DNA of 64,000 bases, from the NCBI GenBank assembly GCA_965207675.1, contig CBDBMY010000008.1, positions 344,291-408,290 of the forward strand, written 5' to 3'. Under the pieces are notes generated by a model that did no database searches, had not been told where the DNA came from, and worked only from the letters and a program-made list of their open reading frames with translations. Source of the DNA: Vicinamibacterales bacterium. GTDB lineage: Bacteria; Acidobacteriota; Vicinamibacteria; Vicinamibacterales; UBA8438. Made by a program: the position numbers and the translations under genes. Below, piece after piece: positions 3,058 through 64,000 of the stretch (the stretch's first letter is position 1; each line of letters starts with the position of its first letter).

Positions 3058-3801
3058 GGCGCGTCCCCCTGTCCGGCGGCGGTTCCGGCGTCCGGCCAGC
3101 CCTTCGCCCAGGCGATGAAGAGGTCGGTCGTGGCGTTCCCGCCCAGGGGCGCCCGGTCCAGGCGGCGGGCCAGCCTGCGCACGTCCGCCACGGGGATCGG
3201 CCGGTAGCCGATCTGCTCGACGCACACGTTGATCCGGGTGTCGTCTACCGACGTCTTCCGGTGGACGTGCCCGTGGACGTTCACGTAGCCGGCGGGCAGG
3301 TCGTCCAGGGGCACATGGGTGAAGAGCAGGTGGGGCCTCGCCCGCCAGGTGGGCGCAGGCCACCACCGCGAACGCCCGCCGGAGGCGGCGGATGTGGGGG
3401 TGGTCGTGGTTCCCGGCCACGAGGATCTTGCGGCCGGGCCTGCGCCGGAGGCGGTCGATCAGGCCGTCGGTCGGGCGGCCCATCGCGACGTCGCCCAGAC
3501 AGATCACCGTCTCGCGGTCCAGCACGTCGCGCGTCCAGTGCTCCAGCAGGTAGCCGTCGCCGTGGTGGCAGCCCCGGAACGGGCGGCCGAAGACGGCGAC
3601 GCTCGCCCCGTGTTCGAAGTGCGGATCGGAGAACACCCACGTCCGGTGTTCGTCCCGCGGGCGCAACGTCACGCCCAGCAGCCGTCTGGATGCGGCCAGC
3701 ACGGCCGCGGCGGCGTGCCGGTCGTGGGCGGGGATGCGCCCGTCCGCGACCTGGGCGGTCAGTTGCGCCTCGTAGATCCGTTGAAGCTCGAACTCGTTCA
3801 T
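3054..3801 (-). pseudogene. Metallophosphoesterase paralog (MPE2) with one frameshift
   Basis: MNEFELQRIYEAQL..WVFSDPHFEHG..VICLGDV..ILVAGNHD is followed by a frame change near 3325-3335 to ..HLLFTHVPLDDLPAGYVNVHGHVHR..INVCVEQIGYRPIPVADVRRLARRL. The gene is collinear with MPE1. It is split between track ORFs 2122..3933 and 3054..3314. An assembly error cannot be excluded. Confidence 0.7.
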
Positions 3802-16088: not shown

Positions 16089-19000
16089 TCAGGCCGGTTG
16101 CGCCGTCGGCGGCGCCAGCGCCCGCGCCAGCATTTCGTCGATCGTGGACACGAAGCGCACGTCGATCCCCCGCAGCAGGTCTTCGCCGAGCTTCTCGTCG
16201 ACCTCACTCGCGTTCGCGGTCGGCAGGATCACCCCGGCGAGTCCGCAGCGGCGGGCGGCCAGCACCTTCTCCTTGACGCCGCCGACCCCGAGCACGTCCC
16301 CCGAGAGGGTGATCTCGCCGGTCATGGCGAGGTCGCGGCGCACGGCACGCCCGGTGAGGGTGGAGACCAGCGCGGCGACCATCGCCACGCCCGCCGACGG
16401 TCCGTCCTTCGGGATGCTGCCGGCCGGCACGTGCAGGTGCACCTCGGCGGCCTCGTAGAACCCGGGGGCGACGCCGTAGCGGGTGGCGTTGGCGCGCACC
16501 CACGACAGCGCCGCGTGCGCCGACTCCTTCATCACGTCACCCAACTGTCCGGTGAGGGTCAGCGCACCGCCGCCGGGCATCCGGCTGGCTTCGACGAACA
16601 GCACGTCGCCGCCGGCGGGGGTCCACGACAGCCCCATCGCCACGCCGGGGCGCTTCATGCGCCCCGACGGCGCTTCGTCGGCGTGCGGTGGCCGGCCCAG
16701 CATGTCGGCGACCGCCGGCTCCGTGATCTCGACCGGCGACTCGTCTCCCCCGGCCCGCCGCAGCGCCACCTTGCGGCAGACCGCGCCGATGCGGCGGCCG
16801 AGTTCGCGCACGCCCGCCTCGCGCGTGTAGCCGCGAATCAGGGCGTGCAGCGCCCCGTCGGTGAAGCGGACCCCCTCGGCCGCGAGGCCGTTCTCGTCGA
16901 GCTGCCGGCCGACCAGATGCGCCCGGGCGATCTCGAGCTTCTCGTCCTCCGAGTAGCCCGGCAGCTCGATCTTCTCCAGGCGGTCGCGGAGCGGAGCCGC
17001 TATCCGGCTCCACTCGTTCGCGGTGGCGACGAAGAACGTCTCCGACAGGTCGAACGGCACCTCCACGTAGTTGTCGACGAACTTCTTGTTCTGTTCCGGG
17101 TCGAGCACCTCGAGCAGCGCCGACTCGGGGTCGCCCCCGCTGTTCGAGACCCGCGAGATCTTGTCGACCTCGTCCAGCAGCAGCACCGGGTTCTTCGAGC
17201 CGATTCTGACGAGCTCGCGCACGAGCCGGCCCGGCTGCGCGGCGCGCCACGTGCGGTTGTGTCCGCGCAGCTCCGTCCCGTCGCTCATTCCGGCGAAGGA
17301 CATCTTGGCGAACTTCCTGCCCATGGCGTCCGCGATGCCCTGCGCAAGCGACGTCTTGCCGACCCCGGGGGGGCCGACGAGGCAGAGAACCGTCCTCGGG
17401 CTGCCGCCGAGTTTCCGCACCGCCAGATCCTCCAGCAGCCGCGCCTTCGCCTTGGCGAGCCCCCAGTGCCCCTCGTCCAGCAGCTCGCGGGCGCGCCGCT
17501 GGTCGATGGGTTCCTCGCGGCGGGCGTTCCACGGCAGGCCGGTGAGGCACTGGAGATAGGTGAACCGGTCGCCGTAGTCGGCGTCGCCCGGCGACCTCGA
17601 CAGCATCAACTGCAGCTCGCGCTTGGCGTGCCGTCGCGCCGCGTCCGGCAGGCCGCCGCGGTCGATCGCCGCCCGGATCCCCTCGACGCCGGGCAGGACT
17701 TCGCCGCCGCCCTTCCCCGCGCCGAGCACCTCCCGGACCGTGTCCGCCGTCACCGCGGTCGTCTCCGCGGCGCCGCCGCTCGACGCCTCCAGTCGGAGCG
17801 CCGTCCGCCGGCAGATCGCCGAGACGCCGCGGTCGAGGTCCCGCACGCCCATTTCGTTCGCGTGGTCGCGGATCATCCCCCGCAGCGCCTCGTCTTCGAA
17901 CGCGATCAGCCCGCCCGTCAGTCCGTGGTCGCGGATGCGCGCCGGCACGAGGATCCGCTTGGCGATCTCGAACTTCTCCTCCACCGTGTAGCCGGCGATC
18001 TCGATCGCCTCCACGCGGTCCCGCAGCACCGCGGGAATATCGCCGAGCACGTTCGCGGTGGCGATGAAGAAGACCTCCGACAGGTCGAACGGCAGGTCCA
18101 CGTAGAGATCGTGGAATGCGGCGTTCCGGGTCGGATCGAGCGCGTCGAGCAGCGCCATGCCCGGCGCCCAGCCCACCTTGTCGATCTCGTCGAGGAGGAA
18201 CACGGGATTCCTCGCGCCGATTCTCTGCAACTGCCGGATGATCGCCCCGGGGTGCGACGCGGCATAGTCGCGTCGGGCGCCCCGGACGTCGGCGACCTCC
18301 GTCAAGCCGTTGCACGACATCTCGGCGAATCTGCGGCCGAGGGCCCGGGCGACGCCCGCCGCCAGCGAGGTCTTGCCCACGCCCGGCGGCCCGACGAAGC
18401 AGAGAATCTGTCCCCGCGCGTCACCCTTACGACGGCGCACGGCCAGGTGTTCGAGGATGCGATTTTTCGCGTCCCGGAGTCCGACATGCCGTTCGTTCAG
18501 GACGCTCCGGGCGCGCTCGACATCGATCGTCTCCGGCCCGCCGCCGCGCCACGGCAGGTCGGCCAGCACGAGGAAGTACTCCCTGACTTTCTCGGCTGTG
18601 TCCGCCGACAGCTTGTCGAGCTCGGGCCTCAACCGGTTCAGCACCTCCCGGGGCATGCCGCACGCCTCGATCCTGCCGCGGAGTCTCTTGGTCGGGTCCT
18701 CCAACTGCGCCTGGACGTCGTCAAGCCTGGTCTTCAGAAGCCGGCCGCCGAGGGAGTCGTCCCGTCGGCGTTCCGATGCCTGCCGCCAGTGCTCCTCCCT
18801 CGCCTTCAGGCCGCGTTCGTAGGTCTTCTCCGGGCCCGCCCCCTCGAGCGCGTCGACCATGAACGCGTTCAGCGCGCGCACGCGTTCGCCCGGATTGAGG
18901 ATGTCGAGCCACCGCTGCTGGAGCGGGACCGGAACGTCGAGGTCGGCGATGCGCCTGATCAGGCTGACCGCGATGAAGTCCGCGGCCACGTCGATGGGGA

Positions 19001-19595
19001 GGGCGGGCGCCTGCCACGACTTCGCGGACGCGCTGTCGCGCGACGGTGAAGCCGAGCCGTCGCGGTCGCGCCCCCGCCCGAGCTCGATCGCCTCGAGGAC
19101 ATCCAGCAGATCGGCCGCCGCAACGGCGTCGGTGCCCGGAGACCGTTCGAGCAGCTTCACGAAGTTGTCCCGGACCCCCTGGTAGTCGGCGCAGCGGCCG
19201 AAGACCGGGTACGCGGGGTTGGGGCCCGGCGAGGCGCCGCCCTGATCGCCGACCGCGCGCGCGAGGAGCCGCAGCGTCACGAGGGACGGCTCCGGGAAGC
19301 CGGCTGCTGTGCCGAGCGTGCAGACCCTGCCGGGGACGCCGGAGTCCCCGTGCGGCGGCGGGTCGAACCGGCAACGGAACTTGAAGACCCTCGACCCGGG
19401 CAGGTCAGGACTCGACCGGCCGCCTGCCTGCTCGACGAGCCGCGCGAGCGGGTCCGTCGGGGTCACGGCCAGCGTGACCGACTCGCCCGGGAACAGGACC
19501 ATGCCGGGAAGATCGAGCGTCGGGAGCCTCGACACGTCGGGCAGCCCGCGGAACGGTCGAGGGTCGAACGAAGAACGGCTAATCGTGATTGGCAT
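16089..19595 (-). CDS. lon: Lon protease with tandemly duplicated AAA+ module (N domain, AAA+ 1, AAA+ 2, S-K protease)
   Basis: The N domain begins LPTLDLPGMVLFPGESVTLAV. Walker A GPPGVGKTSLA occurs twice (encoded at ~18369-18395 and ~17354-17385). Walker B is LLDEIDK in one copy and LLDEVDK in the other. The Ser box PKDGPSAG and Lys box GGVKEKVLAA are present. I set the start at ATG 19595 (GGAGAG 8 nt upstream); the track ORF extends to 19742. Confidence 0.9.
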   Translation of the reverse strand: MPITISRSSFDPRPFRGLPDVSRLPTLDLPGMVLFPGESVTLAVTPTDPLARLVEQAGGRSSPDLPGSRVFKFRCRFDPPPHGDSGVPGRVCTLGTAAGFPEPSLVTLRLLARAVGDQGGASPGPNPAYPVFGRCADYQGVRDNFVKLLERSPGTDAVAAADLLDVLEAIELGRGRDRDGSASPSRDSASAKSWQAPALPIDVAADFIAVSLIRRIADLDVPVPLQQRWLDILNPGERVRALNAFMVDALEGAGPEKTYERGLKAREEHWRQASERRRDDSLGGRLLKTRLDDVQAQLEDPTKRLRGRIEACGMPREVLNRLRPELDKLSADTAEKVREYFLVLADLPWRGGGPETIDVERARSVLNERHVGLRDAKNRILEHLAVRRRKGDARGQILCFVGPPGVGKTSLAAGVARALGRRFAEMSCNGLTEVADVRGARRDYAASHPGAIIRQLQRIGARNPVFLLDEIDKVGWAPGMALLDALDPTRNAAFHDLYVDLPFDLSEVFFIATANVLGDIPAVLRDRVEAIEIAGYTVEEKFEIAKRILVPARIRDHGLTGGLIAFEDEALRGMIRDHANEMGVRDLDRGVSAICRRTALRLEASSGGAAETTAVTADTVREVLGAGKGGGEVLPGVEGIRAAIDRGGLPDAARRHAKRELQLMLSRSPGDADYGDRFTYLQCLTGLPWNARREEPIDQRRARELLDEGHWGLAKAKARLLEDLAVRKLGGSPRTVLCLVGPPGVGKTSLAQGIADAMGRKFAKMSFAGMSDGTELRGHNRTWRAAQPGRLVRELVRIGSKNPVLLLDEVDKISRVSNSGGDPESALLEVLDPEQNKKFVDNYVEVPFDLSETFFVATANEWSRIAAPLRDRLEKIELPGYSEDEKLEIARAHLVGRQLDENGLAAEGVRFTDGALHALIRGYTREAGVRELGRRIGAVCRKVALRRAGGDESPVEITEPAVADMLGRPPHADEAPSGRMKRPGVAMGLSWTPAGGDVLFVEASRMPGGGALTLTGQLGDVMKESAHAALSWVRANATRYGVAPGFYEAAEVHLHVPAGSIPKDGPSAGVAMVAALVSTLTGRAVRRDLAMTGEITLSGDVLGVGGVKEKVLAARRCGLAGVILPTANASEVDEKLGEDLLRGIDVRFVSTIDEMLARALAPPTAQPA

Positions 19596-19805
19596 TTCGA
19601 TAACTCTCCAGCGGTTCTCGAACCGCTCGGACATTCGATGAAAGGGCCAGCCGGCGCGCTCCGAGCCTCGCGGATGGACGCAGAGCGCACGGAACAACCG
19701 GGCTGCGCGCGAGCCGCCCTCCGCCACGTTGGGCGTTGGCAAAGATCGCCAGCAAGGGCAACCGAACGACTTCCCCGGATTCAGGAATTCGGACGTGTTC
19801 GTCCG

Positions 19806-20265
19806 TCAGGTGCGGCGCTCGCTTCTAGCGGCCCGCCGGGATGCGTGGCATCCCCAAGTCGCCGGTCGCCCTCTGGCGGGGCCGGCTTCGGACCTTGGGT
19901 CCGATCAGGTGCGGGCTCGCTCTTCTAGCGGCCCGCCGGGATGCGTGGCATCCCAAGTCGCCGGTCGCCCTCTGGCGGGGCCGGCTCGGACCTTGGGTCC
20001 GATCAGGTGCGGGGCTCGCTCTTCTAGCGGCCCGCCGGGATGCGTGGCATCCCAAGTCGCCGGTCGCCCTCTGGCGGGGCCGGCTCGGACCTTGGGTCCG
20101 ATCAGGTGCGGGGCTCGCTCTTCTAGCTAGCGGCCCGCCGGGATGCGTGGCATCCCAAGTCGCCGGTCGCCCTCTGGCGGGGCCGGCTTCGGACCTTCGG
20201 TCCGATCAGGTGCGGGGCTCGCTTCTAGCGGCCCGCCGGGATACGTGATATCCCCAAGTCGCCGG
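19806..20265. repeat. Tandem array, ~4.6 copies of a 99-104-bp hairpin-rich unit
   Basis: Unit starts are at 19806, 19905, 20004, 20103 and 20207. The unit is TCAGGTGCGGGGCTCGCTCTTCTAGCGGCCCGCCGGGATGCGTGGCATCCCAAGTCGCCGGTCGCCCTCTGGCGGGGCCGGCTCGGACCTTGGGTCCGA, with three hairpins (GGGATGC-GTG-GCATCCC; GCCGG..CCGGC; CGGACC-TTG-GGTCCG). Confidence 0.9.
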
Positions 20266-20532
20266 GTGCTTCCGAAGCGCTCGGGCGCGTCTTGAGCGTG
20301 GCACACGACGATGCTGCGACGCTACCATGCACATCCGCCCCCTGTCAAAAACGAATCGACCTCGACGAAGCCGGAGCCCGGATCCGTACGGCGAGGGTCG
20401 CCCGCTCAAGCGCCGGCAGCATCCGGTCAAGCCCTACGCGGGGAATCAAGTGGAAACCTGATGGCCCCATCCCCTTCGCAGTGCCACGGACAAACGGCCC
20501 GCGCAACGACGCGGCGCTGCCGAAAGTCGGCG

Positions 20533-20960
20533 TCAATCCGTAGAAGCCGCCCAAGCGATCCGGTCGATCGTCGTCGCACCAGCGCGCGTCCGCCCGCCGA
20601 CGAGCGCTCTGGCGAGCGGCAGGACCTGGGTGCGGATGTCGAGCGGCCGGTAGCCGGTCTGCTCGACGCTCATGTTGATCCACGGGCTGGCCCCGAACGG
20701 CCAGAGTCGTGGTGGTGGCCGTGCACGTTGACGCACCCGTCGGGCACGGAGACGAGCGGCACACTTGCGTGACGATGAGTGGAGGATCGGTGTGGAGGAC
20801 CAACGTCATCACCGAGGCGTCGGCGCCCATCCGACGCGCCTGCCAACGGTACCGAGTGAAGTTGTGGTTGCCGAGGATGACGATCTTCCTACCGGGGAGG
20901 TTCGCGGAGGGAGGCGTCCAGCGACCGAAGAATGCCGCAGCGGCCGCCGAGATCATGGAA
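20533..20960 (-). pseudogene. Decayed third metallophosphoesterase paralog (MPE3)
   Basis: GRKIVILGNHNF, PPLIVT / HASVPLVSVPDGCVNVHGHHH and WINMSVEQTGYRPLDIRTQVLPLARALV are found in three different minus-strand frames. The N-terminal motifs are not recoverable. Confidence 0.5.
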
Positions 20961-21064
20961 CGGGGTCCTTCCCGCCCCACCGTCGGGAAAGCCGAGGACG
21001 ATCGGCGCAGCGCCGCGGACCCGAGGACCCGAGCGCCCATTGGGCGCCGCTGGCAACATGGTGG

Positions 21065-21460
21065 CCGAGCCATCCGCCTCTATTACGACACGCGAAGCCT
21101 GCTCGCCACGATTCGGAGCACGTTCGACCGTGAGACCCGGGGCTCCCGGACGGGGCCCTCCGCCCGGTGCTCGACGCGGATCTGCTGGTGCTCGACGACC
21201 TCGGTGCGGAGCGCGCGACTGAGTGGGTGGACGAGACGATGAACTCCATTGTCAACACCCGCTACAACGACCGCCGCGCCACCATCTTCACGTCGAACTA
21301 CGAGGACGGGCCCGACCCCGACGCGCTTGACTCGCTCCTCGCGCGCGTCGGCTTCCGCATGCACTCGCGGCTCCGCCGATTGGTTTCAAGTACGCGAACG
21401 GTCCGGTCGGTCTCGAGCACATACCAACCGTCGCGGGGTTTTTCTTTGCAGCGTGCGTGA
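21065..21460 (+). pseudogene. DnaC/IstB-like AAA+ ATPase, C-terminal fragment with frameshift
   Basis: ..IRLYYDTRSLLATIRSTFDRET.. in one frame is followed by ..DADLLVLDDLGAERATEWVDETMNSIVNTRYNDRRATIFTSNYEDG..LLARVGFRMHSRL in another. These are the Walker B and sensor regions. No Walker A part is present. Confidence 0.5.
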
Positions 21461-22533: not shown

Positions 22534-23074
22534 CGGGGTAGGAGGTGCGGCCTGTGAGGTTGGGAACGGAGTGGGAGCATTGGAATGATGTGCTCGTCCT
22601 TGTCGAAGGACTCGTCGGCGAGATGGAGAAGGGACCACGCGGGAAGGCGGCGGCAATAGGGACTTGAACCGAGGCCGACCGACGGACCAGAGGAGCTACG
22701 GGCACAATGGGCAATAGGGCCGTCGGCTGAAGCTCGGTGGCGGGGCTGGGCCATTGAACTGGCCACAAAACAACACGGCGCCATGGATAGCGGCATGGTG
22801 GACAGGCGGCCGTTTCGAAGGGGGGTTGGTCCGGGAGGGAACCCCGGGAACGCCGGTGGATGCGGGCAGTACCTGGCGGGCGGCGGCGGTGCTCTTCACG
22901 ACGAGTCCGGGATGGCCGGCGACACCCACTCGCGGGCAAAGTGGTCGACGACGAGCGTGTTGCCGTCGTCGCACCGGGGACAGGGCGGCAACGAACGGCC
23001 GGTCAGCGCCTCGTAGCGGTCCCGATAGTCGGTGATGGCCGGGCGGGCGCGCTCTGCCGATGGCAGCGGGGAGG

Positions 23075-23388
23075 CGTGCGATCAAATTGTGGCGCTCGGC
23101 GATCCACGCGCAGGTGCCCAGGGTCAGGATCTGCTGGCGGTTGAGCCGGCGGGGGTGGGTGAAATCGACGGCCTCGAGCGTCGCCGGATAGCGCAGCTTG
23201 GCGGCGTGGAGGCGCCGTTCGAGCTTGCGCTGCTCGCGGGTGGTCCACTCGGTGTCGACGAGCAGGCCGAGCCGCTCCTCGAAGCCGAGGGCGGCGGCCT
23301 CGTCAGTCTGGAGCTGCCGCTGGAGGGCGTCGGCCATACCGCCGAGCTTCATGGCGTTGAGCTTGTCGAGGGTCTGTTCGATCAGCAC
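23075..23388 (-). pseudogene. istB: IS21-family IstB helper ATPase, N-terminal remnant
   Basis: From GTG 23388: MLIEQTLDKLNAMKLGGMADALQRQLQTDEAAALGFEERLGLLVDTEWTTREQRKLERRLHAAKLRYPATLEAVDFTHPRRLNRQQILTLGTCAWIAERHNLI. Family similarity ends before the Walker A box. Confidence 0.6.
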
Positions 23389-23606
23389 GGGTCCTCCTGG
23401 GTGGTGGTGGCGGCGTAGTAGTCGGCGCCGCGGATGCTATGCCGATATCGGCATAGCATCCGTAATGCCGACATCCCGGTTATGCCGCGTGGGCCGCCGA
23501 CCGCCGTGACCCCGCGGCCTTCCTGCAAAGCGATGTCGGCATAATCGGGTTGCCCTTGGCTTGACCGTCATTCCATTCTTCCACCTTGAGAGGAGGGCAA
23601 CGGCCC

Positions 23607-24848
23607 ATGGAACTGCACGCCCACGATGTCGCCGCTCCCACGAACGCTCGTGACCCGCTCCAGCAATGCCGTGATGGATTTCTGGAAAGCCTTGCCGTAC
23701 AAGGCTACTCACCCGCAACAATCGACGTTTATGGCCGCCTCGTGCTGGCCCAGTGTTCCGAGCTGGCAGCCCGAGGTCTTGAGATTGGGAGCCAGGAAGC
23801 CGCCGCTGCCGCCACCTTGGGTGAATTGGCGCCAAAGGCTTCAGCTGCAAGGACGCGCGCACTGTGGGGCAGTGTCGCGAGACGATTCGTCAGATACCTC
23901 TGCGAGCTCGGGATTCTCGACCGGTCCGTACGTAAGGCTGTACCAGAATCGGACGACCTGAGACGTCTCCGTGTAGCGTACGAGAATTGGCTTCGCCATC
24001 AGCGCGGCCTGAGCAACGAAACGGTCAAGAATAACTTGCAGACATTCAACGCCTTCATGCGTTTCCGATTCACGGACGAGGCGATTCAACCCGACCGCAT
24101 AACGCCGGCGGACCTGGTTGCATTTCTTGTGCCCGAGCGCACCCATCGCCAGATCTTTCCCGACCGCACCAAGGCATCGAGGCTGCGCAATCTCCTGCGC
24201 TTTCTGCACTCAAGCGGCAGGGTTCCCAACGCTCTTGTCGAGACCGTATCGCGCACTGCGCGCCACCGCCTGACAACTCCACGCGTGCATCTGGAGCCCG
24301 CCCAGGTTCGGCGCGTGCTCGATGCTGTTCGAGGCGATTCGACTCTCGCTCGCCGCAACTACGCGATCCTGCTGCTGACCGCCCGACTCGGGCTTCGTGC
24401 GCAGGAGGTGGTCGCCATCCGCCTTGAAGATATTCGTTGGCGCGCCGGCGAGCTTCTGATTCGGGGCAAGGGCAATCGTCACGACCCGATGCCCCTCCCG
24501 GTTGACGTCGGTGAAGCGCTGGTCGACTACATCCGTTACGGTAGAAAGGGAACCTGTCGCCACTTGTTCGTCACGGCCCGCGCCCCGTGGCGCCCGTTCG
24601 AGTCTGGCGCTATTGTCGCTCGCGTGCTCGGCGATGCATTGACGGCGGCCGGGCTCAGAGGTCCGCGGCATCGTCGTGGCGTCCATCTGCTCCGTCATTC
24701 CTTGGCAACGACGATGCTACGCCAGGGAGCGTCCTTCGACGAGATCGGCGATGTACTGCGCCATCGGCGTCGTGCGACGACGCTCGTCTACGCCCGCTAT
24801 GACTTGGATGCACTGCGCTCGATTGCACCAGCGTGGCCCGTACCGTAA
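23607..24848 (+). CDS. Tyrosine recombinase, RIT subunit A-like
   Basis: ARLGLRAQEVVAIRLEDIRW..LIRGKGNRHDPMPLP, VHLLRHSLATTML and RATTLVYARY provide the R..HxxR..Y catalytic set. GAGGAGGG lies upstream of ATG 23607. Confidence 0.85.
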   Translation: MELHAHDVAAPTNARDPLQQCRDGFLESLAVQGYSPATIDVYGRLVLAQCSELAARGLEIGSQEAAAAATLGELAPKASAARTRALWGSVARRFVRYLCELGILDRSVRKAVPESDDLRRLRVAYENWLRHQRGLSNETVKNNLQTFNAFMRFRFTDEAIQPDRITPADLVAFLVPERTHRQIFPDRTKASRLRNLLRFLHSSGRVPNALVETVSRTARHRLTTPRVHLEPAQVRRVLDAVRGDSTLARRNYAILLLTARLGLRAQEVVAIRLEDIRWRAGELLIRGKGNRHDPMPLPVDVGEALVDYIRYGRKGTCRHLFVTARAPWRPFESGAIVARVLGDALTAAGLRGPRHRRGVHLLRHSLATTMLRQGASFDEIGDVLRHRRRATTLVYARYDLDALRSIAPAWPVP

Positions 24849-26891: not shown

Positions 26892-28396
26892 TTGGCGTGC
26901 GTCGGCGTCGGGGTCGTCTCGGCCGGCGGCTCCAGGGGCAGACGGTCCTGGCCGGCGGTGAGGATGTTCCTGACGGTGAGGAAGCGGCAGGCGCCGAGAG
27001 CCAGCGCGCGGGCGCAGGCCGCCTCGAGTCGGGTGTTGCCGTAACGCCGTCCCAACTGCATGATGCCGAGACAGGGCCGATATCCCTGCTCGGGGTGCGG
27101 GCGGCTCTCGAGGATGCGGGCGACGAGCTGACCGGTCGCCGGCCCGACCTTCTCGGCCCAGCGGATGAGGCGGGAGGGCGTCCACTCGGCGTGCGCGCGG
27201 TGGGCGCTGGGCATGTGCTCGGCCACCGTGGACCGCTGTCGGTCGTAGCGCCGGCGGTGCGACGCCACGCGCTTGTCGCGGTGCAAGACCTCGAGGGTGC
27301 TCGTCGTGTAGCGGACCTCGACCTGCTCGCGGACCAGTTGGTACGGCACGCTGTAGAGGTGGTGCTAGACCTCGACGTGGTAGTCGATGTTGACGCGGCA
27401 CAGCTTCCACCGCGCCAGGACGTATCGAGTGGTCGGCGGGGGCCGCAGCGCCGGGCGGTCGAGCTGCTCGTAGAGGACGCGGCGGCTGACGCCGAGCTTC
27501 TTCATCGGCCGGTCGTTGAGCTCGTCGAGGAGGACACGGATCGCCCGGTTCATCGGGCCGAGCTCGAAGAAGGTCTCGTTGCGGAGGCGGGCCAGAATCC
27601 ACCGCTGGGCCACGAGCACGCTGTTCTCGACCGCAGCCTTGTCCCGGGGCTTTCTCGGCCGCGCCGGGACGACGACGGCGCCGTAGTGAGCGGCGAGGTC
27701 CTCGTAGGTGCGGTTGACGTCGGGCTCGTAGCGGCAGGGGCGGGTGACGGCGCTTCGGAGCTGGTCGGGGATCCACAGCGCGGTGGCGCCGCCGAAGTAG
27801 TCCACCATGTGGACGTGCGCGTCGACCCAGTCCGGCAGTTGCTGGGTCTCGGTCGCCTCGGCGTAGGTCAACTTGCTGGCGCCGAGGACGGCGACGAACA
27901 GCTCGACGCGCCGCAGCTCGCCCGTGCGTCGGTCGACCAGGGGGGGCCGCTTCCCGGAGAAGTCGATGAAGGTCTTCTCGCCGGCGCGGTGCACTTGGCG
28001 CATCGACGGCCGGAGCCGCCGCGCCCACTGCCGGTAGATCTCACAGAACTGAGTGTAGCGGTAGCCGGTCGGATGGACCTGGAGGTACTCCTCCCAGAGG
28101 AGCTGCAGGGTGACGCCGTCGCGCCTGAGCTCGCGGTGGATGTGCGCGCAGTCGGGCCGGGCCCGGTCGTGCACCGGCGCGTCGCGGGGAAACAGTCGAG
28201 CCGCCAGCGCCGTGTCGTCGAGCTCCGGCGGCAACGGCCAGCCGAGGCCGCGGCGCTCCGCCCGCTCCAGGTAGCGGGAAACCGTGCCCGGACCGATGAC
28301 GCAGGCCTGAGCGATCTCCCGGTGGGACAGGCCCTGCTCGTACCTGAGTCGTAGGATCTTCCGAATCTTCCGCATCAGCAGCCTCCGAGCCGGCAT
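26892..28396 (-). pseudogene. istA: IS21-family IstA transposase, with an internal TAG and interrupted near its 3' end by the RIT insertion
   Basis: The HTH is IRKILRLRYEQGLSHREIAQACVIGPGTVSRYL. DDE core elements are ..FIDFSGKR..VAVLGASKLTYAEAT..PRKPRDKAAVENSV. There is an in-frame TAG at 27365-27367 (NIDYHVEV*HHLYSVPYQL). The frame reads ..PTPTHANIR up to the RIT element; the last 15 codons (GADYYAATTTQEDPC*) continue on the far side of RIT1, overlapping the istB start at 23388. Confidence 0.85.
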
Positions 28397-28475
28397 CGCC
28401 TCGCCCTCCTCGTCGCAAAGGGCGAAGCATGCCGCGGTCAGGCTACCGACGAGCTCTCACGATCCTCGGACCGGG

Positions 28476-28604
28476 GGTGATCCCCTTCCTCCGGAAGTGA
28501 TCCACTTCGGCCGAAAGCGATCCACTTCGGCCGAAATCGGTGATCCACTTCGACCGGAATCAGCGATCCACTTCCGCCGAAATGAGCGATCCACTTGGGC
28601 CGAA
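28476..28604. repeat. Six tandem 20-23-bp repeats (GATCCACTTCGGCCGAAA core), probably the multi-repeat left end of the IS21 element
   Basis: Copies are at 28476, 28496, 28516, 28536, 28559 and 28582. The array lies 80 bp upstream of the istA start and ends where the IS91 reading frame breaks. IS21-family ends are known to carry multiple direct repeats. Confidence 0.6.
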
Positions 28605-29208
28605 ATACGCAGAATGGGGTGGAAGCCGGGTGGCGGCACGTGGAGGAGCATGCGCCGGATGAACTCGGTCGCGGTCAGCGTCAGCGTCTTCCGGCGGCAC
28701 GCGCCGGCCCGGCGGTAGTCGGTGTAGCGGAGGCGCACGGAGCCGTCGTCGAGGCTGCACAGGCGCTGGTTGCCGATGGCGATGCGGTGGGTGTAGCGCG
28801 CGAGGTAGTCGAGGACCTGTGCGGGGGGCCGGCGAAGGGCCGCGTCGCGTAGACCACGTACTCGGCCTTTCGGGCCGGGCGGAGAAGCTCGGGGAATCGC
28901 CGGGGGTCGTTGGGGGGCTGCTGCCGGCCGGCGAAGCGCAGGCGCTCGGACTCGAGGGCGTCCTCCAGCGCCTGGACGAGCACCCGAGGGAATGTAGCGT
29001 GACAGGACCCGGACCGGGCCGGAAGAAGCCGGGACGGCAGGCAACCCACGCGCTGCCGTCGGCTGCGAGCCCCCCCACCCGGGATGACGCAGTGCAGATG
29101 CGGGTGATGGGACGAGCGCCTGGCCCTAGGTGTGGAGGACGGCGAAGAAGCCGATCTCAGCGCGGAGGTGGCGAGGGTCGGCGGCGATCGTGCGGAGCGT
29201 CTCGGCGA

Positions 29209-30702
29209 CGAGGTATAACCGAAAGTTGTGGATCGCGGCGTGAGGCAGGTGGCGTACCCTTCCGTGTGAACAACGCAAGACACCCTGGCAGGCAAGGCCG
29301 GGGGGAAGGAGACACCACCCATGCTGACGGTACCCGACAACAGGAACGAAGACAACCCCGCGGTCGTCGCCGACGCGCCCACGACGGCGTCGGCTGGTGA
29401 GGGGGTCGGCAGCGGCGGGGCTGACGGGCCGCGGAACGTGCCGCCGACGCTGGACACGTTGGCTCGCGAAGGGGCACGGCGGATGCTGATGACGGCCCTG
29501 GAGGCCGAGGTGACGGAGTACATCGAGCGGTTCGCGGAGGTGCGCGATGCGGACGGGCACCCGCTGGTGGTGCGGAACGGCCAGGCGCAGGAGCGCACGG
29601 TGACCTGCGGGGCGGGCACATGGCCGGTGCGGGCGCCGCGGGTGAACGACAAGCGGGTCGATGCCGATGGCTCGCGTGAACGGTTCACCAGCCGCATTCT
29701 GCCTCCCTATATGCGTCGCTCTCCGCAGGTTTCCGAGGTGCTGCCGCTGCTGTATCTGCGGGGTCTGTCGACGGGCGATTTCCGGGAGGCGCTGCCGGCG
29801 TTGCTGGGGGAGGACGCGGCGGGCCTGAGCCCGACGACGATCTCGCGGCTGACGACGGTCTGGGACGAGGAGTACCAGGCGTTCCGGCGCCACGACTTGT
29901 CGGGGAGCGACTACGTCTACGTCTGGGTTGACGGGATTCACTTCAACATCCGGCTTGAGGAGGACCGTCTGTGCACGCTGGTGGTGATCGGGGTGAAAGC
30001 GGACGGCACGAAGGAGCTGGTGGCGCTGGAGGACGGCTACCGGGAGAGCCAGGAGAACTGGGCGAGCGTGCTGCGGGACCTGCGGGGCCGCGGTCTGCGG
30101 GCGCCGGCGGTGGCGATTGGGGACGGGGCGCTGGGCTTCTGGTCGGCGTTGCGGGACGTGTGGCCGGAGACGACGGTGCAGCGGGACTGGTGCCACAAGC
30201 TGGCCAACGTGCTCGACAAGCTGCCGAAGCGTCTTCGGCCGCGTGCGAAGCGGGCGCTGCGGGACACCATGTATGCGTCGACGAAGGCCGACGCGGAGCG
30301 TGGCATCGACACCTTCGTCGCCGAGTTCGAGGCGAAGTACCCGAAGGCAGCGGCGTGCCTGGCGGAGGACCGGGAGGCGCTGCTGGCGTTCTTCGACTTC
30401 CCGGCGGAGCACTGGCTCCACCTGCGGACTTCGAATGTGATCGAATCGGTGTTCGCGACGGTGCGTCTTCGGCAGCGCGTGACCAAGGGCGCGGGTTCGC
30501 GGACCAAGGGGCTGCTGATGGCCTACAAGCTGGTGGCGATGGCGCAGCGGCGATGGCGCCGGCTGAACGGCGCACACCTGCTGCCCTTGGTCCGGGCTGG
30601 CGTCGTCTTCGTCGATGGCGTCATCCAGACGGAGAGAGAGGATCGGAAGGAAGCCGCCTGATCACGTCACGGGCCGATCCACAACATTTGACAATTCCTC
30701 CG
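29209..30702 (+). mobile_element. IS256-family insertion sequence
   Basis: Imperfect ~26-bp inverted repeats are GAGGTATAACCGAAAGTTGTGGATCG at the left end and CGATCCACAACATTTGACAATTCCTC at the right end. A 9-bp direct repeat CTCGGCGAC occurs at 29200-29208 and 30703-30711, with 2 nt ambiguous at the right junction. Confidence 0.8.
29321..30661 (+). CDS. IS256-family (Mutator-type) transposase
   Basis: This is a 446-aa track ORF with ..LLYLRGLSTGDF.., YVYVWVDGIHFNIRLEEDRLCTLVVIGVKADGTKELVAL and ..QRDWCHKLANVL..TSNVIESVFATVR, the typical IS256 layout. Confidence 0.9.
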   Translation: MLTVPDNRNEDNPAVVADAPTTASAGEGVGSGGADGPRNVPPTLDTLAREGARRMLMTALEAEVTEYIERFAEVRDADGHPLVVRNGQAQERTVTCGAGTWPVRAPRVNDKRVDADGSRERFTSRILPPYMRRSPQVSEVLPLLYLRGLSTGDFREALPALLGEDAAGLSPTTISRLTTVWDEEYQAFRRHDLSGSDYVYVWVDGIHFNIRLEEDRLCTLVVIGVKADGTKELVALEDGYRESQENWASVLRDLRGRGLRAPAVAIGDGALGFWSALRDVWPETTVQRDWCHKLANVLDKLPKRLRPRAKRALRDTMYASTKADAERGIDTFVAEFEAKYPKAAACLAEDREALLAFFDFPAEHWLHLRTSNVIESVFATVRLRQRVTKGAGSRTKGLLMAYKLVAMAQRRWRRLNGAHLLPLVRAGVVFVDGVIQTEREDRKEAA

Positions 30703-33377: not shown

Positions 33378-33404
33378 TTGGCATGCACCTGGCCATACGT
33401 CGAA

Positions 33405-33750
33405 GGCGGCCGCCGCGGCCGTCGCCGGGGCGTCGAGCGCTCGCGGGCATGGTCGGCAGCCAGCGCCGGCGGCCCCGTCGCGGGCGGCGCTCGTCGAGGG
33501 TGGCCGCCGCGGCCGTCGCCGGGGCGTCGAGCGCTCGCGGGCATGGTCGGCAGCCATCGCCGGCGGCCCCGTCGCGGGCGGGGCCCATCGAGGGTGGCCG
33601 CCGCGGCCGTCGCCGGGGCGTCGAGCGCTCGCGGGCGTGGTCGGCAGCCAGCGCCGGCGGCGGGCGTCGAGGGTGGTCGTCGCGGCCGTCGCCGGGGCGT
33701 CGAGCGCTCGCGGACGTGGGTCGGCAGCCAGCGCTGGCGGCGGACGTGTG
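33405..33750. repeat. Tandem repeat, ~4 copies of a 79-96-bp GC-rich unit
   Basis: Units start at about 33405, 33501, 33595 and 33674. The core is GGCCGCCGCGGCCGTCGCCGGGGCGTCGAGCGCTCGCGGGCATGGTCGGCAGCCAGCGCCGGCGG, which contains the small palindromes GGCCGC/GCGGCC and CGAGCGCTCG. Confidence 0.85.
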
Positions 33751-52307: not shown

Positions 52308-52358
52308 GGCGATGGAGGGTAGTGGTCCTGCGGTAAGAATGTCAACGTCGGCGCGGGT

Positions 52359-55877: not shown

Positions 55878-56297
55878 TCACGTCCCAGCCGGCAGCTCCC
55901 CGGCGTACCCCTCCGCCTGCAACTTCGTCAGGGCCTCCACTGCCTTGGCGGCCTGCCGTTCGGTCGGAGCGCTGCCGGCAGGATTGGCCGCGACCCCCAG
56001 TACTCCGACCTCCCTGGGAGTGAGCAGCTCCCGTTCCCTGCCCCACGCCAGCGCCTCCGCCCAGAAGGCAGGCCCAGCCCTGACGACCACGATTTGCGCC
56101 TCCACGCTCTTCAGCTCCCGCTGCTCGCGGCGGGCGTTTCGAGCTTCATCGCGACGGTCGGCGGTCGAGATCAGGCCGTCGAGGAACGGCTGAGGCCATG
56201 CGACCTCACGTTCGCTGACACGGTTCCAGCACGCCTGCTTCTTCGCCCACTCCGTGACGTTGCTGATCTGCGCATTCCGGTGAAACCGATCACCCAT
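55878..56297 (-). pseudogene. 3' part of an unknown gene whose 5' end is replaced by a 23-bp repeat array
   Basis: ..ISNVTEWAKKQACWNRVSEREVAWPQPFLDGLIS..WAEALAWGRERELLTPREVGVLGVAANPAGSAPTERQAAKAVEALTKLQAEGY. The first codons (MGDRFHRN) are encoded by the repeat itself. The tail is vaguely reminiscent of AIPR-type abortive-infection protein C-termini, but this is unverified. Confidence 0.4.
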
Positions 56298-56395
56298 TCC
56301 GGCCGAAACCGATCACCCGTTCCGGCCGAAACCGATCACCCGTTCCGGCCGAAACCGATCACCCGTTCCGGCCGAAACCGATCACCCGTTCGGAG
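56285..56395. repeat. Tandem 23-bp repeat, ~4.8 copies (ACCGATCACCCGTTCCGGCCGAA)
   Basis: Copies are at 56285, 56308, 56331, 56354 and 56377 (the last is partial). The core GATCACCCGTTCCGGCCGAAA resembles the GATCCACTTCGGCCGAAA repeats at 28476-28604. Confidence 0.9.
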
Positions 56396-62613: not shown

Positions 62614-63197
62614 CGGCGTTACCCGGCTTCCCCGGTACTACGGGCCTCTCCGCCACCCTGCTCGGCCCGACCTGACCCTCGCGGGCTGTCGGTTGGCGCG
62701 TGCCACGCCACCGCCAGGGCTTCCCGTGTTGCGTCCGTCCCCCTTTTCCGCACGTGCCGCCGCCATTACCCCGGCGGAACCGGTCGGTGCTCGCGTCGCT
62801 CGCTTCCCGACCGCTGGCAGCCTTCCCCGTCATATGGTCGGGTCGGCTTCCGCATCACTCGTTTCGAGGCCTGCTCAGCGTTCACTCGCGTTGCAGCCCG
62901 TGTGGTCGCTGAACCGCCCAAGGCGGCCCTTTGTCGTCGGAGTGCTTCAGCCGAGTCGTTGCCTCCATCGTCCGCTCCGACTGCTACCGGCTGGAGCGAC
63001 AGTTGCCGGGCGGGATTCGCACCCGCTGAGGAATGGCGCCTTTCACGGCGCACCATACGCCGCGTTATCCGACCCACCGCCACCCGCTGACGCCGCCTCA
63101 TCGATTGACTGCGGCCGGACACTCGTGTCCCGGGGGGGACGGTCGCGTAGAATTGGCCGATGCTGACCCCTGCGACCGAGGATGAACGGGAGCGCAC
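61335..63197 (-). mobile_element. Group II intron, 5' portion (ribozyme domains I-III and most of the IEP ORF)
   Basis: The minus strand starts GTGCGCTCCCGTTCATCC.. at 63197, the GUGCG 5' consensus. About 585 nt of structured, non-coding sequence lie upstream of a reverse transcriptase ORF. I did not identify the 3' end. Confidence 0.75.
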
Positions 63198-63237: not shown

Positions 63238-64000
63238 ATGATCGAGATGGAAGCGGGAATGCGAGATGTAGTCGTTGCGGTGGCCGTCGGCGTCGTCTTT
63301 CCGGGAGTGGCGCTCGCTCAGCTGGCGCCAGCGAGTCAAGCGGAGTTCGAGCAACGGTTTACGGGCTGGACGCTGCTGTCGGACGCGCCGGACTGCAACG
63401 AAGGCAATGGGATCGACCCCGTCACCTTCATCGGCCCGGGCCGGTTCGAGACGAACGGACTCGAGGGCGACTACCAGTACCGGGGAACCGGCGCGGACAC
63501 GGGGACCCTCACGTTGACGGTCGACATCATTCCGATTCCCCAGGTGTCCGATCTGACGTTCGACTCGCGGACGACGGGCACGTTCGCAGCGGGGGCGGGC
63601 GGCGTGGTGCTCTGTGAAGGCGGCTTCGAGCTCGTCGACTCGACGATCCCCGACACGACGCCGCCTTCGCTGGTCGGCGCCGAGGTGGTGGTCTCCGGCG
63701 ACGAGATGGCTCTCGCCTTCGACGAGGAACTCGCCGGGGTCGACTCCCTTCTCGGCCTGCTCGCATCGGCGCTCTCCGTCACCGCGGACGGGGAACCCGT
63801 CCTCGTCGACGGGTACGCCTACGGGGGCTTCGGGCGCATCGGCCGTCGCCTGCAGCTCTTCTTGTCCGGCGTCATCACCCGGGGTCAGACGGTCGTAGTC
63901 TCCTACGCCGATCCCACCCCCGGCGACGACGACGTCGCACTCCAAGACCTGGCCGGTAACGACCTGGCTTCCTTCACCGCGACGGCGACCAACAACTCCG
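63238..64000 (+). CDS. Secreted protein with Ig-like (adhesin-type) repeat, 5' part; continues past the right edge
   Basis: Own translation of a frame open to the window end: MIEMEAGMRDVVVAVAVGVVFPGVALAQ (signal) ..DTTPPSLVGAEVVVSGDEMALAFDEELAG..LSVTADGEPVLVDGYAYGG..GQTVVVSYADPTPGDDDVALQDLAGNDLASFTATATNNS. This is the typical P..LV.A.V.G..L.L.F.E.L....F.V..DG....V....V..G..V.VSY......A..D.AGN repeat. It is not in the ORF track because it has no stop. Confidence 0.7.
   Translation, partial: MIEMEAGMRDVVVAVAVGVVFPGVALAQLAPASQAEFEQRFTGWTLLSDAPDCNEGNGIDPVTFIGPGRFETNGLEGDYQYRGTGADTGTLTLTVDIIPIPQVSDLTFDSRTTGTFAAGAGGVVLCEGGFELVDSTIPDTTPPSLVGAEVVVSGDEMALAFDEELAGVDSLLGLLASALSVTADGEPVLVDGYAYGGFGRIGRRLQLFLSGVITRGQTVVVSYADPTPGDDDVALQDLAGNDLASFTATATNNS

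Follow-up and report, generated by a model that had tools for sequence, protein, structure and literature searches.

What is the array of hairpin-forming repeats that lies directly in front of a gene for Lon with a duplicated AAA+ module, and does it act as DNA, as RNA or not at all? Lon is a protease with a central part in quality control and regulation. The array was noticed within a 64,000-nt stretch of DNA from a Vicinamibacterales bacterium, which is referred to here as the window and to which all coordinates relate. The first-pass annotation offered four options, namely a structured 5' leader, a repeated protein-binding platform controlling lon, a REP/BIME-like element or a small-RNA array, and chose none of them.

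The presence of a tandem array was confirmed by TRF, which places it at 19801-20265 with a period of 99, 4.7 copies, 93% matches and a score of 781, a signal far above chance. Four amplified units, delimited by TRF and a covariance model (CM), occupy 19814-20213 on the minus strand, in the sense of lon: u1 at 20110-20213 (104 nt), u2 at 20011-20109 (99 nt), u3 at 19913-20010 (98 nt) and u4 at 19814-19912 (99 nt). These units are 91-99% identical to one another and score 84-91 bits with the CM on the minus strand only; one internal pair is 99% identical, and a 99-nt stretch repeats at 100% identity inside the array. Each amplified unit consists of the linker GCACCUGA, hairpins Ha and Hb, the linker GACUU, and hairpins Hc and Hd, in this order. 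Ha is UCGGACC-CAA-GGUCCGA, Hb is GCCGGCCCCGCC-AGAG-GGCGACCGGC, Hc is GGGAUGC-CAC-GCAUCCC, and Hd is GGCGGGCCGCU-AGAAG-AGCGAGCCCCGC. Three hairpins per unit had been proposed initially; both MFE and centroid folds give four. The first, promoter-proximal unit (20214-20311, minus strand) has diverged and lacks Ha. It is 68-73% identical to the other units, and its CM match spans 20231-20297 with 19.4 bits. On the minus strand it carries a variant Hb (20261-20288), a variant Hc (20238-20254) and a short Hd (20217-20237). Its Hc variant, GGGAUAU-CAC-GUAUCCC, can still form each of the 7 pairs when read in lon-sense, with one G:C to A:U double change and one U:G pair. The units had been described as differing just by single-base changes, which does not hold for this first unit, nor for one amplified unit with a 4-nt CTAG duplication. 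All units are direct repeats in a single orientation and abut without unique sequence between them.

The unit lengths of 98, 99, 99 and 104 nt disrupt any reading frame, and the array is therefore non-coding. A leader peptide starting at the AUG in GGGAUG was considered and rejected, since this AUG has no Shine-Dalgarno sequence and the unit indels disrupt the frames. An integron attC or integrase-site reading was likewise rejected; a unit is a series of separate hairpins, and the loci do not share the integrase.

A sigma-70-type promoter-like site is situated just upstream of the array at 20319-20348 (minus strand), with a -35 element TTGACA at 20343-20348, an 18-nt spacer and a -10 element TAGCGT at 20319-20324; the predicted transcription start falls near 20311. 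Two sites in the window fit the pattern TTGACA-N17/18-TAnnnT, where 0.04 would be expected, and L002, L004, L005, L006 and L009 have a single match each, with position and orientation unchanged. The leader of L007 has TTGACA with a different spacing. The -10 element agrees with TATAAT at 3 of 6 positions, and a generic promoter scan did not call the site at 20319-20348. A terminator-like hairpin with a T-run (20357-20373, minus strand) lies directly upstream of the -35 element. It is the only terminator-like site that the terminator scan found within 19300-21300, and it may insulate the leader from transcription upstream.

On the other side of the array, a terminal copy of the linker GCACCUGA and a conserved terminal hairpin, Hf, occupy 19790-19813 (minus strand), with Hf itself, CGGACG-AACA-CGUCCG, at 19790-19805. 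Relative to the lon start, Hf is found between -195 and -227 in 6 of 6 lineages (L004 counted from its corrected start) and is invariant in the alignment except for its closing pair, which is GC in five and CG in one. This palindrome after the array, about 195 nt from lon, has no U-run and was not called by the terminator scan, which predicted no terminator between array and lon. Hf is followed by a conserved structured leader spacer (19610-19789, minus strand), homologous among the window, L004, L005, L006, L007 and L009, with a long-range helix and a Shine-Dalgarno-adjacent hairpin, AGCGGUUCGAGAACCGCU (19610-19627, minus strand). The Shine-Dalgarno sequence GGAGAG (19604-19609, minus strand), read from the sequence, stands 8 nt before the ATG, and its GGAG is kept in orthologues. 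The measured distance from the array to the ATG at 19595 is 206-211 bp, in agreement with the 211 bp given earlier.

The lon gene (16089-19595, minus strand) encodes a 1168-aa LonA-type protease. Its earlier description as a double-AAA+ Lon is borne out by the domain composition (Pfam AAA twice, Lon_lid twice and Lon_C) and by a TIGR00763 match of 971 bits (cutoff 608) in two stretches. About 60 clusters of Lon orthologues were found at 60-68% identity; an exact look-up of the protein returned no record, and PADLOC gave no specific match for it. Upstream of the promoter, the minus strand holds fragments of a decayed metallophosphoesterase gene (20554-20905), which were recognized by tblastn with a 265-aa ORF from L008 whose family has Metallophos matches. 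The gene had been recognized correctly as a decayed member of this family, and it is context rather than part of the element. An intact metallophosphoesterase paralogue is located at 956-1651 on the minus strand. Next to the array is a region that varies between strains and contains IS21 fragments and an integrase, and the lon-plus-leader loci sit in variable, island-like contexts, with cas, zeta-toxin, PIN/RHH, ParB-DUF6551, S24 peptidase, IS and integrase neighbours. The mobile neighbour genes are not kept between loci, and no candidate binding protein is consistently encoded beside the lon loci compared.

The first-pass annotation had made a lon-specific role depend on the unit not being scattered over the genome, and it does not appear to be. 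A 20-mer common to all five units matched one locus of a 7.03-Mb contig from a conspecific Vicinamibacterales genome, that of lon. Scanned over 208 kb (window plus loci), the CM, R1, gave significant matches to units in lon leaders alone and always in lon-sense, and a filters-off CM scan of the 64-kb window found no further unit. Several isolated matches were attributed to chance: a marginal CM match at 63779-63853 has none of the motifs, an Elusimicrobia match (L001) to the 20-mer does not extend beyond it, and three viral-contig matches to a 17-mer hairpin were not matched by the CM. The whole leader found no match by BLAST in plasmid and phage collections. A metagenome scan with an alignment of the Lon N terminus gave 600 pattern matches, of which 0 were confirmed, and the terminal-hairpin 21-mer had no match there; the collection evidently does not include this lineage. 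Judged from these searches, the unit appears to be lon-specific and not dispersed, although diverged copies may exist elsewhere in the genome. Rfam 15 returned nothing relevant for the array and leader of the window or for the six orthologous loci, at gathering and at permissive thresholds, and ARAGORN found no tRNA or tmRNA. The leader matches no described RNA family.

The array resembles REP/BIME elements in that palindromic, GC-rich units form a cluster between genes. REPs, however, are dispersed in hundreds of copies whose orientation often alternates and which mostly lie 3' of genes, whereas the lon array occupies one locus 5' of one gene family and contains direct repeats only. The REP/BIME option is thus set aside on account of the single locus and the one orientation. 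Mycobacterial MIRU VNTRs are closer in being intergenic tandem repeats of ~50-100 bp that are transcription-oriented and differ in copy number between strains; the lon array, too, is intergenic, tandem, within the 46-101 bp given for the repeats of such VNTRs, and polymorphic in copy number between conspecific genomes. In contrast to the single-locus, non-coding lon array, MIRUs occur at tens of dispersed loci, and many contain small ORFs that overlap the flanking genes.

The key fact is not visible in the window sequence: homologous arrays, yet ones that were amplified independently, lie upstream of lon in other lineages. Lon orthologues at 65-84% identity (L004, L005, L006, L007 and L009) have upstream repeats of the same modules, and together with the window they form the six Lon lineages of the leader comparison. 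Their common layout comprises the promoter-like site, the diverged first unit, an amplified block, the CGGACG..CGUCCG hairpin ~200 nt before the ATG, the structured spacer and the Shine-Dalgarno hairpin. The unit of the amplified block measures 48 (L009), 95, 99, 101, ~105 (diverged) or 137 nt, and there are 2.4-5.6 copies in the orthologues and at least 2 in 6 of 6 lineages. As the amplified block differs between lineages, amplification has recurred, with no fewer than four distinct unit compositions multiplied independently of one another. The copies of L007 are too diverged for TRF to report an array, and they have been retained with their hairpins intact. Over a shorter time scale, a conspecific genome that is 97% identical over lon and leader has 3.1 copies vs 4.7 in the window, which supports the recent expansion or homogenisation that was suspected from the window. 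The copies among conspecific genomes are 4.7, 3.1 and at least 2, and assembled copy numbers are soft because the array is cut off by the end of the contig in L003 and interrupted by an N-gap in the scaffold of L009. In the conspecific L002 the first unit is missing through a deletion with GTG microhomology, and one further copy is missing as well.

The structure of the repeats was examined on an alignment of units. MAFFT with RNAalifold produced registers inconsistent with the structure and just 5 pairs, and was replaced by a hand-specified structure with CM realignment. In the resulting alignment 95.3% of cells are paired, compared with 29-51% when the partners are slid, and double-sided changes occur in 7 of 20 pairs. 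The covariation score, computed on an alignment fitted to the model, is 0.127 vs 0.039 for shuffles, and 0 of 500 shuffles reach it. Covariation support, which had been named as a check, was thus found; it comes from 7 pairs because most stem positions are invariant. A compensated insertion of 1 bp is seen in L009, which alternates GGAC/GUCC and GGAAC/GUUCC, and single-sequence folds independently recover the hairpins. The stem cores CGGAC/GUCCG, GCCGG/CCGGC and GGGAU/AUCCC are invariant, and the loops vary in length and sequence (3-6 nt in Ha, 3-13 nt in Hc).

A unit z-score of -4.27 in sense vs -2.12 in antisense mildly favours the sense strand, and the units of L006 and L007 do not significantly exceed shuffles in stability. 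As palindromes, the repeat hairpins consist almost entirely of Watson-Crick pairs, with G:U vs A:C pairs in the core stems numbering 3 vs 3, and the folds of single units are slightly better in antisense than in sense. The G:U counts and the antisense folding therefore give no strand signal for the repeats, which could act as DNA, and thermodynamics does not decide on which strand the repeats are structured. The spacer behaves differently in its RNAalifold consensus, with double-sided changes in 10 of 42 pairs, several pairs that are U:G in lon-sense, and a sense fold more stable than the antisense fold in 6 of 6 lineages. The structure of the spacer is sense-strand RNA.

We propose that the array is the amplified part of a structured lon 5' leader and serves as a multivalent RNA platform that sets lon expression, a proposal that we consider to have an even chance of being correct. 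The leader would be ~715 nt long with the array as its tandemly amplified middle section. Transcription would start at the conserved sigma-70-type promoter just upstream and is predicted, from the promoter motif, to run through the array. The transcript would then present the diverged first unit, the four near-identical four-hairpin units, the terminal hairpin, the ~180-nt folded spacer and the ribosome-binding site. That stem sequences are kept and loops are free to vary, as for hairpins read by a sequence-specific protein, suggests a multivalent platform. We infer that the repeats act as RNA and that a trans-acting factor binds the units; this factor could be Lon itself. Binding would set the stability, processing or translation of lon mRNA and hence Lon levels, and the copy number would set the gain. 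Two of the four initial options, the structured leader and the protein-binding platform, fit the conserved promoter-like site and the orthologous leaders and are brought together in this proposal.

Position, orientation and conserved structure are those of a cis-acting 5' leader in the six Lon lineages. Structured leaders such as tandem riboswitches and TRAP or CsrA targets share the long leader, the single gene, the repeated modules, the covarying stems and the Shine-Dalgarno hairpin. The lon units, though, keep their stems and vary their loops, in contrast to riboswitch aptamers, where junction and loop nucleotides are conserved and the stems covary freely, and no per-unit terminator or Shine-Dalgarno-sequestering helix of the kind found in riboswitch expression platforms was detected (terminator scan). 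The copies in known structured leaders are ancient and diverged, whereas those of lon are near-identical and amplified per lineage, and belong to no Rfam family. The sponge RNAs CsrB and RsmZ likewise carry many short hairpin-motif repeats per transcript for multivalent protein binding; they are, in contrast, stand-alone sRNAs with GGA in the loops, whereas the lon repeats lie in a predicted mRNA leader and have GGA in the stems.

The evidence on amplification also bears on a simpler account, in which a single-copy module is functional in the leader and its amplification is a neutral VNTR arising by replication slippage or unequal recombination. The copy-number differences among conspecific genomes, the microhomology deletion of the first unit in L002, the 93-99% identity of internal units, which points to recent turnover, and the softness of the assembled copy numbers all agree with this account, and the conspecific strain without the first unit and one further copy suggests that copy number may be neutral. 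Yet every lineage with the leader has at least 2 copies, at least four unit compositions were amplified independently, and the diverged copies of L007 have kept their hairpins where neutral duplicates would be expected to be lost. We consider neutral amplification unlikely. Action at the DNA level, either through operator or roadblock sites downstream of the promoter or through cruciform or single-stranded hairpins for a recombinase or transposase, draws on the near-perfect Watson-Crick palindromes without strand bias, on both stem arms being kept in sequence across lineages, on the adjoining region with IS21 fragments and integrase, and on the fact that Lon proteins bind DNA. It is opposed by the variable loop lengths, which give a half-site spacing of 3-13 nt and do not fit the fixed spacing of dimer operators, and by the double-sided stem changes and the compensated insertion, which keep pairing and not sequence. 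An element that has one locus, never departs from lon-sense and keeps its distance to the start codon is unlike mobile-element ends, and neighbouring mobile genes differ between loci. A DNA-level role is accordingly judged highly improbable.

Another way of reading the same order of features is as an array of the type III toxin-antitoxin kind, cut into structured RNAs of ~100 nt that act in trans on Lon as ToxI does on ToxN. The published criteria for such loci are a promoter, tandem repeats of 31-62 nt in 1.9-5.6 copies, a short palindrome that serves as terminator between repeats and gene, and a 45-288-aa toxin (PMC3401426). The lon loci follow this order on one strand, with a promoter-like sequence motif (TTGACA-N18-TAGCGT in the window) directly upstream of the repeats, a short palindrome and a protein gene, and their copy numbers of 2.4-5.6 lie inside the published range. 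As in ToxI/ToxN, CptIN and TenpIN, with their 2-6 direct repeats, the repeat number and sequence vary among relatives and the loci occupy variable, island-like regions; conserved stems with variable loops also suggest recognition by a protein. The units, however, have 95-137 nt and 3-6 hairpins as opposed to the 31-62-nt pseudoknots of the ToxI type, with only the 48-nt unit of L009 within that length range, and the protein is a 1168-aa LonA equivalog without a specific PADLOC match instead of a small endoribonuclease like ToxN, CptN or TenpN. The palindrome stands ~200 nt from the gene without a U-tract or terminator call, whereas the 180-nt structured spacer with its Shine-Dalgarno hairpin, part of some 200 nt with no recognisable terminator, resembles an ordinary 5' UTR. 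On balance this reading is improbable.

A further comparison is raised by a sister clade, in which L008, L016 and L017/18 have a cas8e-cse2-cas7-cas5-cas6e operon and a genuine type I-E CRISPR array directly upstream of lon. Like the lon array, CRISPR arrays are direct repeats with a hairpin; they are transcribed from one end, as is predicted for the lon array, and the I-E array occupies the same slot, which could suggest that the window contains a degenerate or derived CRISPR array. The lon array, unlike CRISPR, has no spacers, and tblastn of Cas5, Cas6e, Cas7, Cse2 and Cas8 of L016 and L017 against the 64-kb window found nothing. Local alignment of the unit with the I-E repeat or repeat-spacer is no better than with shuffled sequences (fraction reaching the score 0.31-0.82), and the CM found no unit in the CRISPR-linked lon loci. 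Those lon genes that are linked to CRISPR fall into a single tight clade inside the array clade, so that the CRISPR is a single derived insertion. The derivation from CRISPR is effectively refuted, and the first-pass annotation was right to exclude it. A target search with the conserved spacers of the sister clade yielded one partial 17-nt match in an L007 gene and was considered unconvincing. A bolder extension, which we regard as distinctly improbable, is that the repeat RNA and the double-AAA+ Lon form a self-contained module that moves between islands, that the multi-copy RNA, either freed from the leader or still part of it, binds directly to the protease and gates its activity or synthesis, and that the replacement of the repeat block by cas operon and CRISPR array exchanged, with functional meaning and not by accidental insertion, one RNA input made of hairpin repeats for a second one. 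An RNA-controlled AAA+ protease, if real, would follow type III toxin-antitoxin or abortive-infection logic with an effector of quite another kind.

Acidobacteriota abound in soils and, to our knowledge, almost none of their gene regulation has been characterised. The leader described here is a new RNA element for which boundaries, orthologues and a covariance model are clearly defined, and it appears to be tied exclusively to Lon with a duplicated AAA+ module. Its sequence-conserved hairpins, its recurrent and independent amplification and its strain-variable copy number are a combination that is not typical of known leaders, and together they suggest a dosage-type, multivalent RNA control of the protease. 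If copy number tunes Lon output, the array would be a simple natural rheostat that arose as repeats expanded; should the RNA instead act on the Lon protein, type III toxin-antitoxin logic would reach to AAA+ proteases.

The tandem array of ~99-bp units that the first-pass annotation placed upstream of lon (16089-19595, minus strand) is present and is by far the strongest tandem repeat of the window: Tandem Repeats Finder reports it at 19801-20265 with a period of 99, 4.7 copies, 93% matches and a score of 781. Its distance from the ATG at 19595, 206-211 bp, also agrees with that annotation. Split at a conserved octamer, the array yields units of 99, 98, 99 and 104 nt and a partial diverged unit; the internal units are 91-99% identical to one another, and the promoter-proximal unit shares 68-73% identity with them. 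Two earlier details need revision. The units do not differ by single-base changes only, as one unit has clearly diverged and a duplication of 4 nt is also seen, and the folds give four hairpins per unit instead of three. In lon-sense (minus strand), each unit opens with the linker GCACCUGA, followed by Ha (UCGGACC-CAA-GGUCCGA), Hb (GCCGGCCCCGCC-AGAG-GGCGACCGGC, 5 + 4 bp with an internal loop), a second linker GACUU and Hc (GGGAUGC-CAC-GCAUCCC), and is closed by Hd (GGCGGGCCGCU-AGAAG-AGCGAGCCCCGC). The last unit leads through a linker to a related hairpin, Hf (CGGACG-AACA-CGUCCG, 19790-19805, minus strand). GGGAUAU..GUAUCCC replaces GGGAUGC..GCAUCCC in the first unit of the window. No Rfam family, tRNA or tmRNA matched the array region.

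The lon ORF encodes a LonA protein in which AAA+ module and lid domain each occur twice, beside a Lon_C domain, and TIGR00763 matches it in two stretches with 971 bits (cutoff 608), which confirms the double-AAA+ assignment; the start codon at 19595 lies 8 nt past GGAGAG. The duplication of the coiled-coil/AAA+ module in this 1168-aa LonA equivalog is unusual for Lon, and no specific defence family of PADLOC was matched by it. A full-text literature search of incomplete coverage found no report of double-AAA+ Lon in Acidobacteria, nor of any RNA motif or repeat array in front of lon. The neighbourhoods of the related lon clusters (~60) are unlike in every genome, with cas, zeta toxin, PIN/RHH, ParB-DUF6551, S24 peptidase and IS elements. 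A metallophosphoesterase family with a weak PdeM-like match recurs near lon. The decayed gene suspected beside the array is borne out by fragments at 20554-20905, upstream of the leader promoter, which match the same family as an intact paralogue at 956-1651 and a fragment at 3195-3660 (all minus strand); an intact member lies between a CRISPR array and lon in one relative (L008:2774-3571) and a fragment downstream of lon in another (L004:4883-5110).

The array is a single-locus repeat with variable copy number at the border of a strain-variable region. A 20-mer common to all five units was searched against one genome per species (185,579 species), and its sole true match falls at this same lon locus, on a 7.03-Mb contig from a conspecific Vicinamibacterales MAG, L002; an Elusimicrobia match was rejected, having nothing beyond the 20-mer in common with the window. 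The Hb and Hc sequences do not occur again anywhere in the window, and the leader matched nothing in plasmid and phage collections. L002 is 97% identical to the window over lon and leader, and its array holds 3.1 units against 4.7 in the window, the diverged first unit being absent. The homology stops ~700 bp right of the array, where an integrase and IS21 IstB fragments are found in the window. On a third conspecific contig, L003 (Lon 96% identical), the sequence breaks off inside the array. Another strain-level indel beside the lon module is found 3' of lon, where L002 has ~349 bp (L002:478-827) missing from the window at 15662/15663.

The window is rich in mobile elements, among them a tyrosine integrase (23586-24848, plus strand), a Mutator-family transposase (29270-30661, plus strand) and a group II intron D1-D4 RNA (62886-63028, minus strand, 84.6 bits). 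The segment 21500-22700, in which GC drops to 0.57-0.62 with a strong G-over-C skew (+0.28 to +0.36), is flanked by IS21 IstB fragments at 21167-21460 (plus strand) and 22696-23388 (minus strand), and its 358-aa membrane-like ORF has no Pfam match. Two tandem arrays of 23-bp units, at 28477-28606 (4.8 copies) and 56275-56391 (5.1 copies), have the palindromic core TTCGGCCGAA in common; the former directly adjoins the gene of an HTH/rve-family transposase (27365-28456, minus strand), which suggests transposase-binding sub-repeats or iteron-like sites as possible identities. Overlapping, very GC-rich tandem repeats (94 bp x 2.8 and 79 bp x 2.0, 92-95% matches) occupy 33398-33747.

The decisive result is that homologous, independently amplified arrays stand upstream of orthologous lon genes. 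Full-length double-AAA+ relatives of this Lon comprise ~60 clusters at 60-68% identity, in addition to closer ones, and DNA was examined for eleven. Repeats precede lon in L004 (Lon 84% identical to that of the window; 95 nt x 2.4), L005 (69%; 137 nt x 5.1), L006 (69%; 101 nt x 5.6) and L009 (66%; 48 nt x at least 3.2, the scaffold containing an N-gap), and L007 (65%) has ~2.5 diverged copies of ~105 nt that Tandem Repeats Finder missed. Read in lon-sense, these five loci and the window have a common plan: a TTGACA-N17/18-TAnnnT site comes first, then a diverged first unit lacking Ha, the amplified block and a terminal unit whose last hairpin is CGGAC..GUCCG; a ~180-nt spacer and a hairpin abutting the Shine-Dalgarno lead on to lon. 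The terminal hairpin lies 195-227 nt from the start codon in every lineage, L004 being counted from a corrected start because the called start is too far downstream. Which segment was amplified depends on the lineage: L009 repeats linker-Ha-Hb alone, the window and L004 extend from the linker to Hd and L005 to Hf, and L006 has a variant with remodelled Hc. A single ancestral multi-hairpin element of ~140 nt must therefore have been amplified in part at least four times independently.

In L009 (2865-3020), units of 48 and 50 nt alternate, set apart by a compensated 1-bp insertion in their first hairpin (GGAC/GUCC vs GGAAC/GUUCC); owing to the internal N-gap, the assembly gives only a lower bound for copy number. 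We also note the motif CCC(G)TTCAGGCTCA-N7/8-TTGGA, present once or twice just 5' of the leader promoter -35 in L005 (4915-4975), L006 (5005-5040) and L009 (2480-2545), and missing in the window and L004, whose upstream DNA has been replaced. It could be a regulator site, and GTTCAGG resembles some LexA boxes.

A covariance model of the unit was seeded with in-register units of three lineages, its structure set by hand (Ha 6 bp, Hb 5 + 3 bp, Hc 6 bp), and searched against both strands of the window and 16 loci (208 kb). All matches with E < 1e-3 lie within lon leaders in lon-sense, and none at this threshold falls in the flanks, the CRISPR-linked loci or the outgroup lon loci L010 and L011. 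In these searches the unit is not scattered, an outcome on which the first-pass annotation had made its lon-specific interpretation hinge, together with support from transcription or covariation. With all filters off, the model scores the four units (19814-20213) at 84-91 bits, the first unit (20214-20311) at 19 bits and a terminal pseudo-unit at 17.5 bits; a marginal match at 63779-63853 was rejected, every unit motif being missing. Covariation was found as well. In a model-guided alignment of 24 units (20 distinct), standard pairs fill 95.3% of cells, against 29-51% after a shift of the 3' partners by 1-3 columns, double-sided changes occur in 7 of 20 base pairs, and the covariation score is 0.127 against 0.039 in shuffles (0 of 500 equal it), values to be read with an alignment fitted to the model, a majority of invariant stem positions and six lineages only. 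Covariation extends to each of the three pairs of the inner Hb helix (e.g. C:G to U:A), and Ha is closed by C:G, G:C or G:U. Independently of the model, the structure is backed by the compensated insertion in L009, by the GGGAUAU..GUAUCCC stem of the first unit in the window, and by alignment-free folds of single sequences, which recover the hairpins.

The 64-kb window contains two strict matches to the promoter pattern (0.04 expected), one immediately upstream of the array at 20319-20348 and one, TTGACA-N17-TAnnnT, at 52316-52345, both on the minus strand. The sole strict match per locus in L002, L004, L005, L006 and L009 corresponds to the one next to the array in position and orientation. 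Directly 5' of the -35 lies a hairpin with a T-run that resembles a terminator, and no terminator is predicted between array and lon. The ~200 nt from Hf to the start codon have a consensus fold with double-sided changes in 10 of 42 pairs, and several of its U:G pairs in lon-sense become A:C on the opposite strand; the sense fold is better in 6 of 6 lineages, with more G:U pairs in sense. This region is therefore read as sense RNA, and the nearest conserved promoter to it sits past the array. The sequence of the repeats themselves does not reveal their strand. G:U and C:A stand at 3 vs 3 in the repeat stems, single units fold slightly better in antisense, and only the composition-corrected z-scores lean to sense (sense vs antisense, -4.27 vs -2.12 in the window and -4.26 vs -2.63 in L005; L006 and L007 neutral).

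In L008, L016, L017 and L018, lon is directly downstream of type I-E cas8e(cse1)-cse2-cas7-cas5-cas6e and a genuine type I-E CRISPR array (L008:1889-2500, L016:3338-3913, L017:3559-3891, L018:1413-1745) with repeats of 27-29 nt and spacers of 33-35 nt. The array ends 50-110 nt from the lon ATG in L016 and L017, and in these loci cas6e is followed by the array with neither cas1 nor cas2 in between. Unusually for CRISPR, related spacers (families A, B, C) recur both inside one array and between three species, and no convincing target was found for them. The three CRISPR-linked Lon proteins group tightly together (86-88% identical) inside the array-bearing clade; the hairpin-repeat leader is therefore ancestral, and the cas-CRISPR block entered it once, as a derived insertion. 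The replacement of one hairpin-repeat transcript by another at lon is notable. That the window array is itself a CRISPR derivative is rejected as hardly credible, in line with the first-pass annotation: the CRISPR-linked Lon clade is nested as described, the window has no Cas homologue, the similarity of the unit to I-E repeat or repeat-spacer sequence is no better than that of shuffles, and the model finds no unit in the CRISPR-linked loci.

The element is established as a conserved lon-specific leader, in which a multi-hairpin module is repeatedly amplified between conserved promoter-like and ribosome-binding flanks. For its function, we give an even chance to a joint reading in which the array is transcribed within a ~715-nt 5' UTR of lon and acts as RNA; the hairpins, conserved in sequence, would offer a trans-acting factor several binding sites through which it tunes lon mRNA fate, and unit copy number would set the gain of this control. 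The stems are conserved in sequence and the loops vary in length (Ha 3-6 nt, Hc 3-13 nt), which argues against fixed-spacing dsDNA operators and favours hairpins recognised sequence-specifically; we hold a DNA-level role for the array to be improbable. It is unlikely, if less so, that a single module is functional and its amplification neutral VNTR behaviour. An arrangement like type III-TA, in which unit RNAs act on Lon protein, is doubtful: the order of parts in the locus agrees with published criteria (PMC3401426), but unit size and above all the protein do not, and a terminator between array and gene is questionable. The lon leader element is of the same broad kind as structured gene-specific leader RNAs and repeat-RNA arrays; its unusual property is that amplification has recurred, lineage by lineage.
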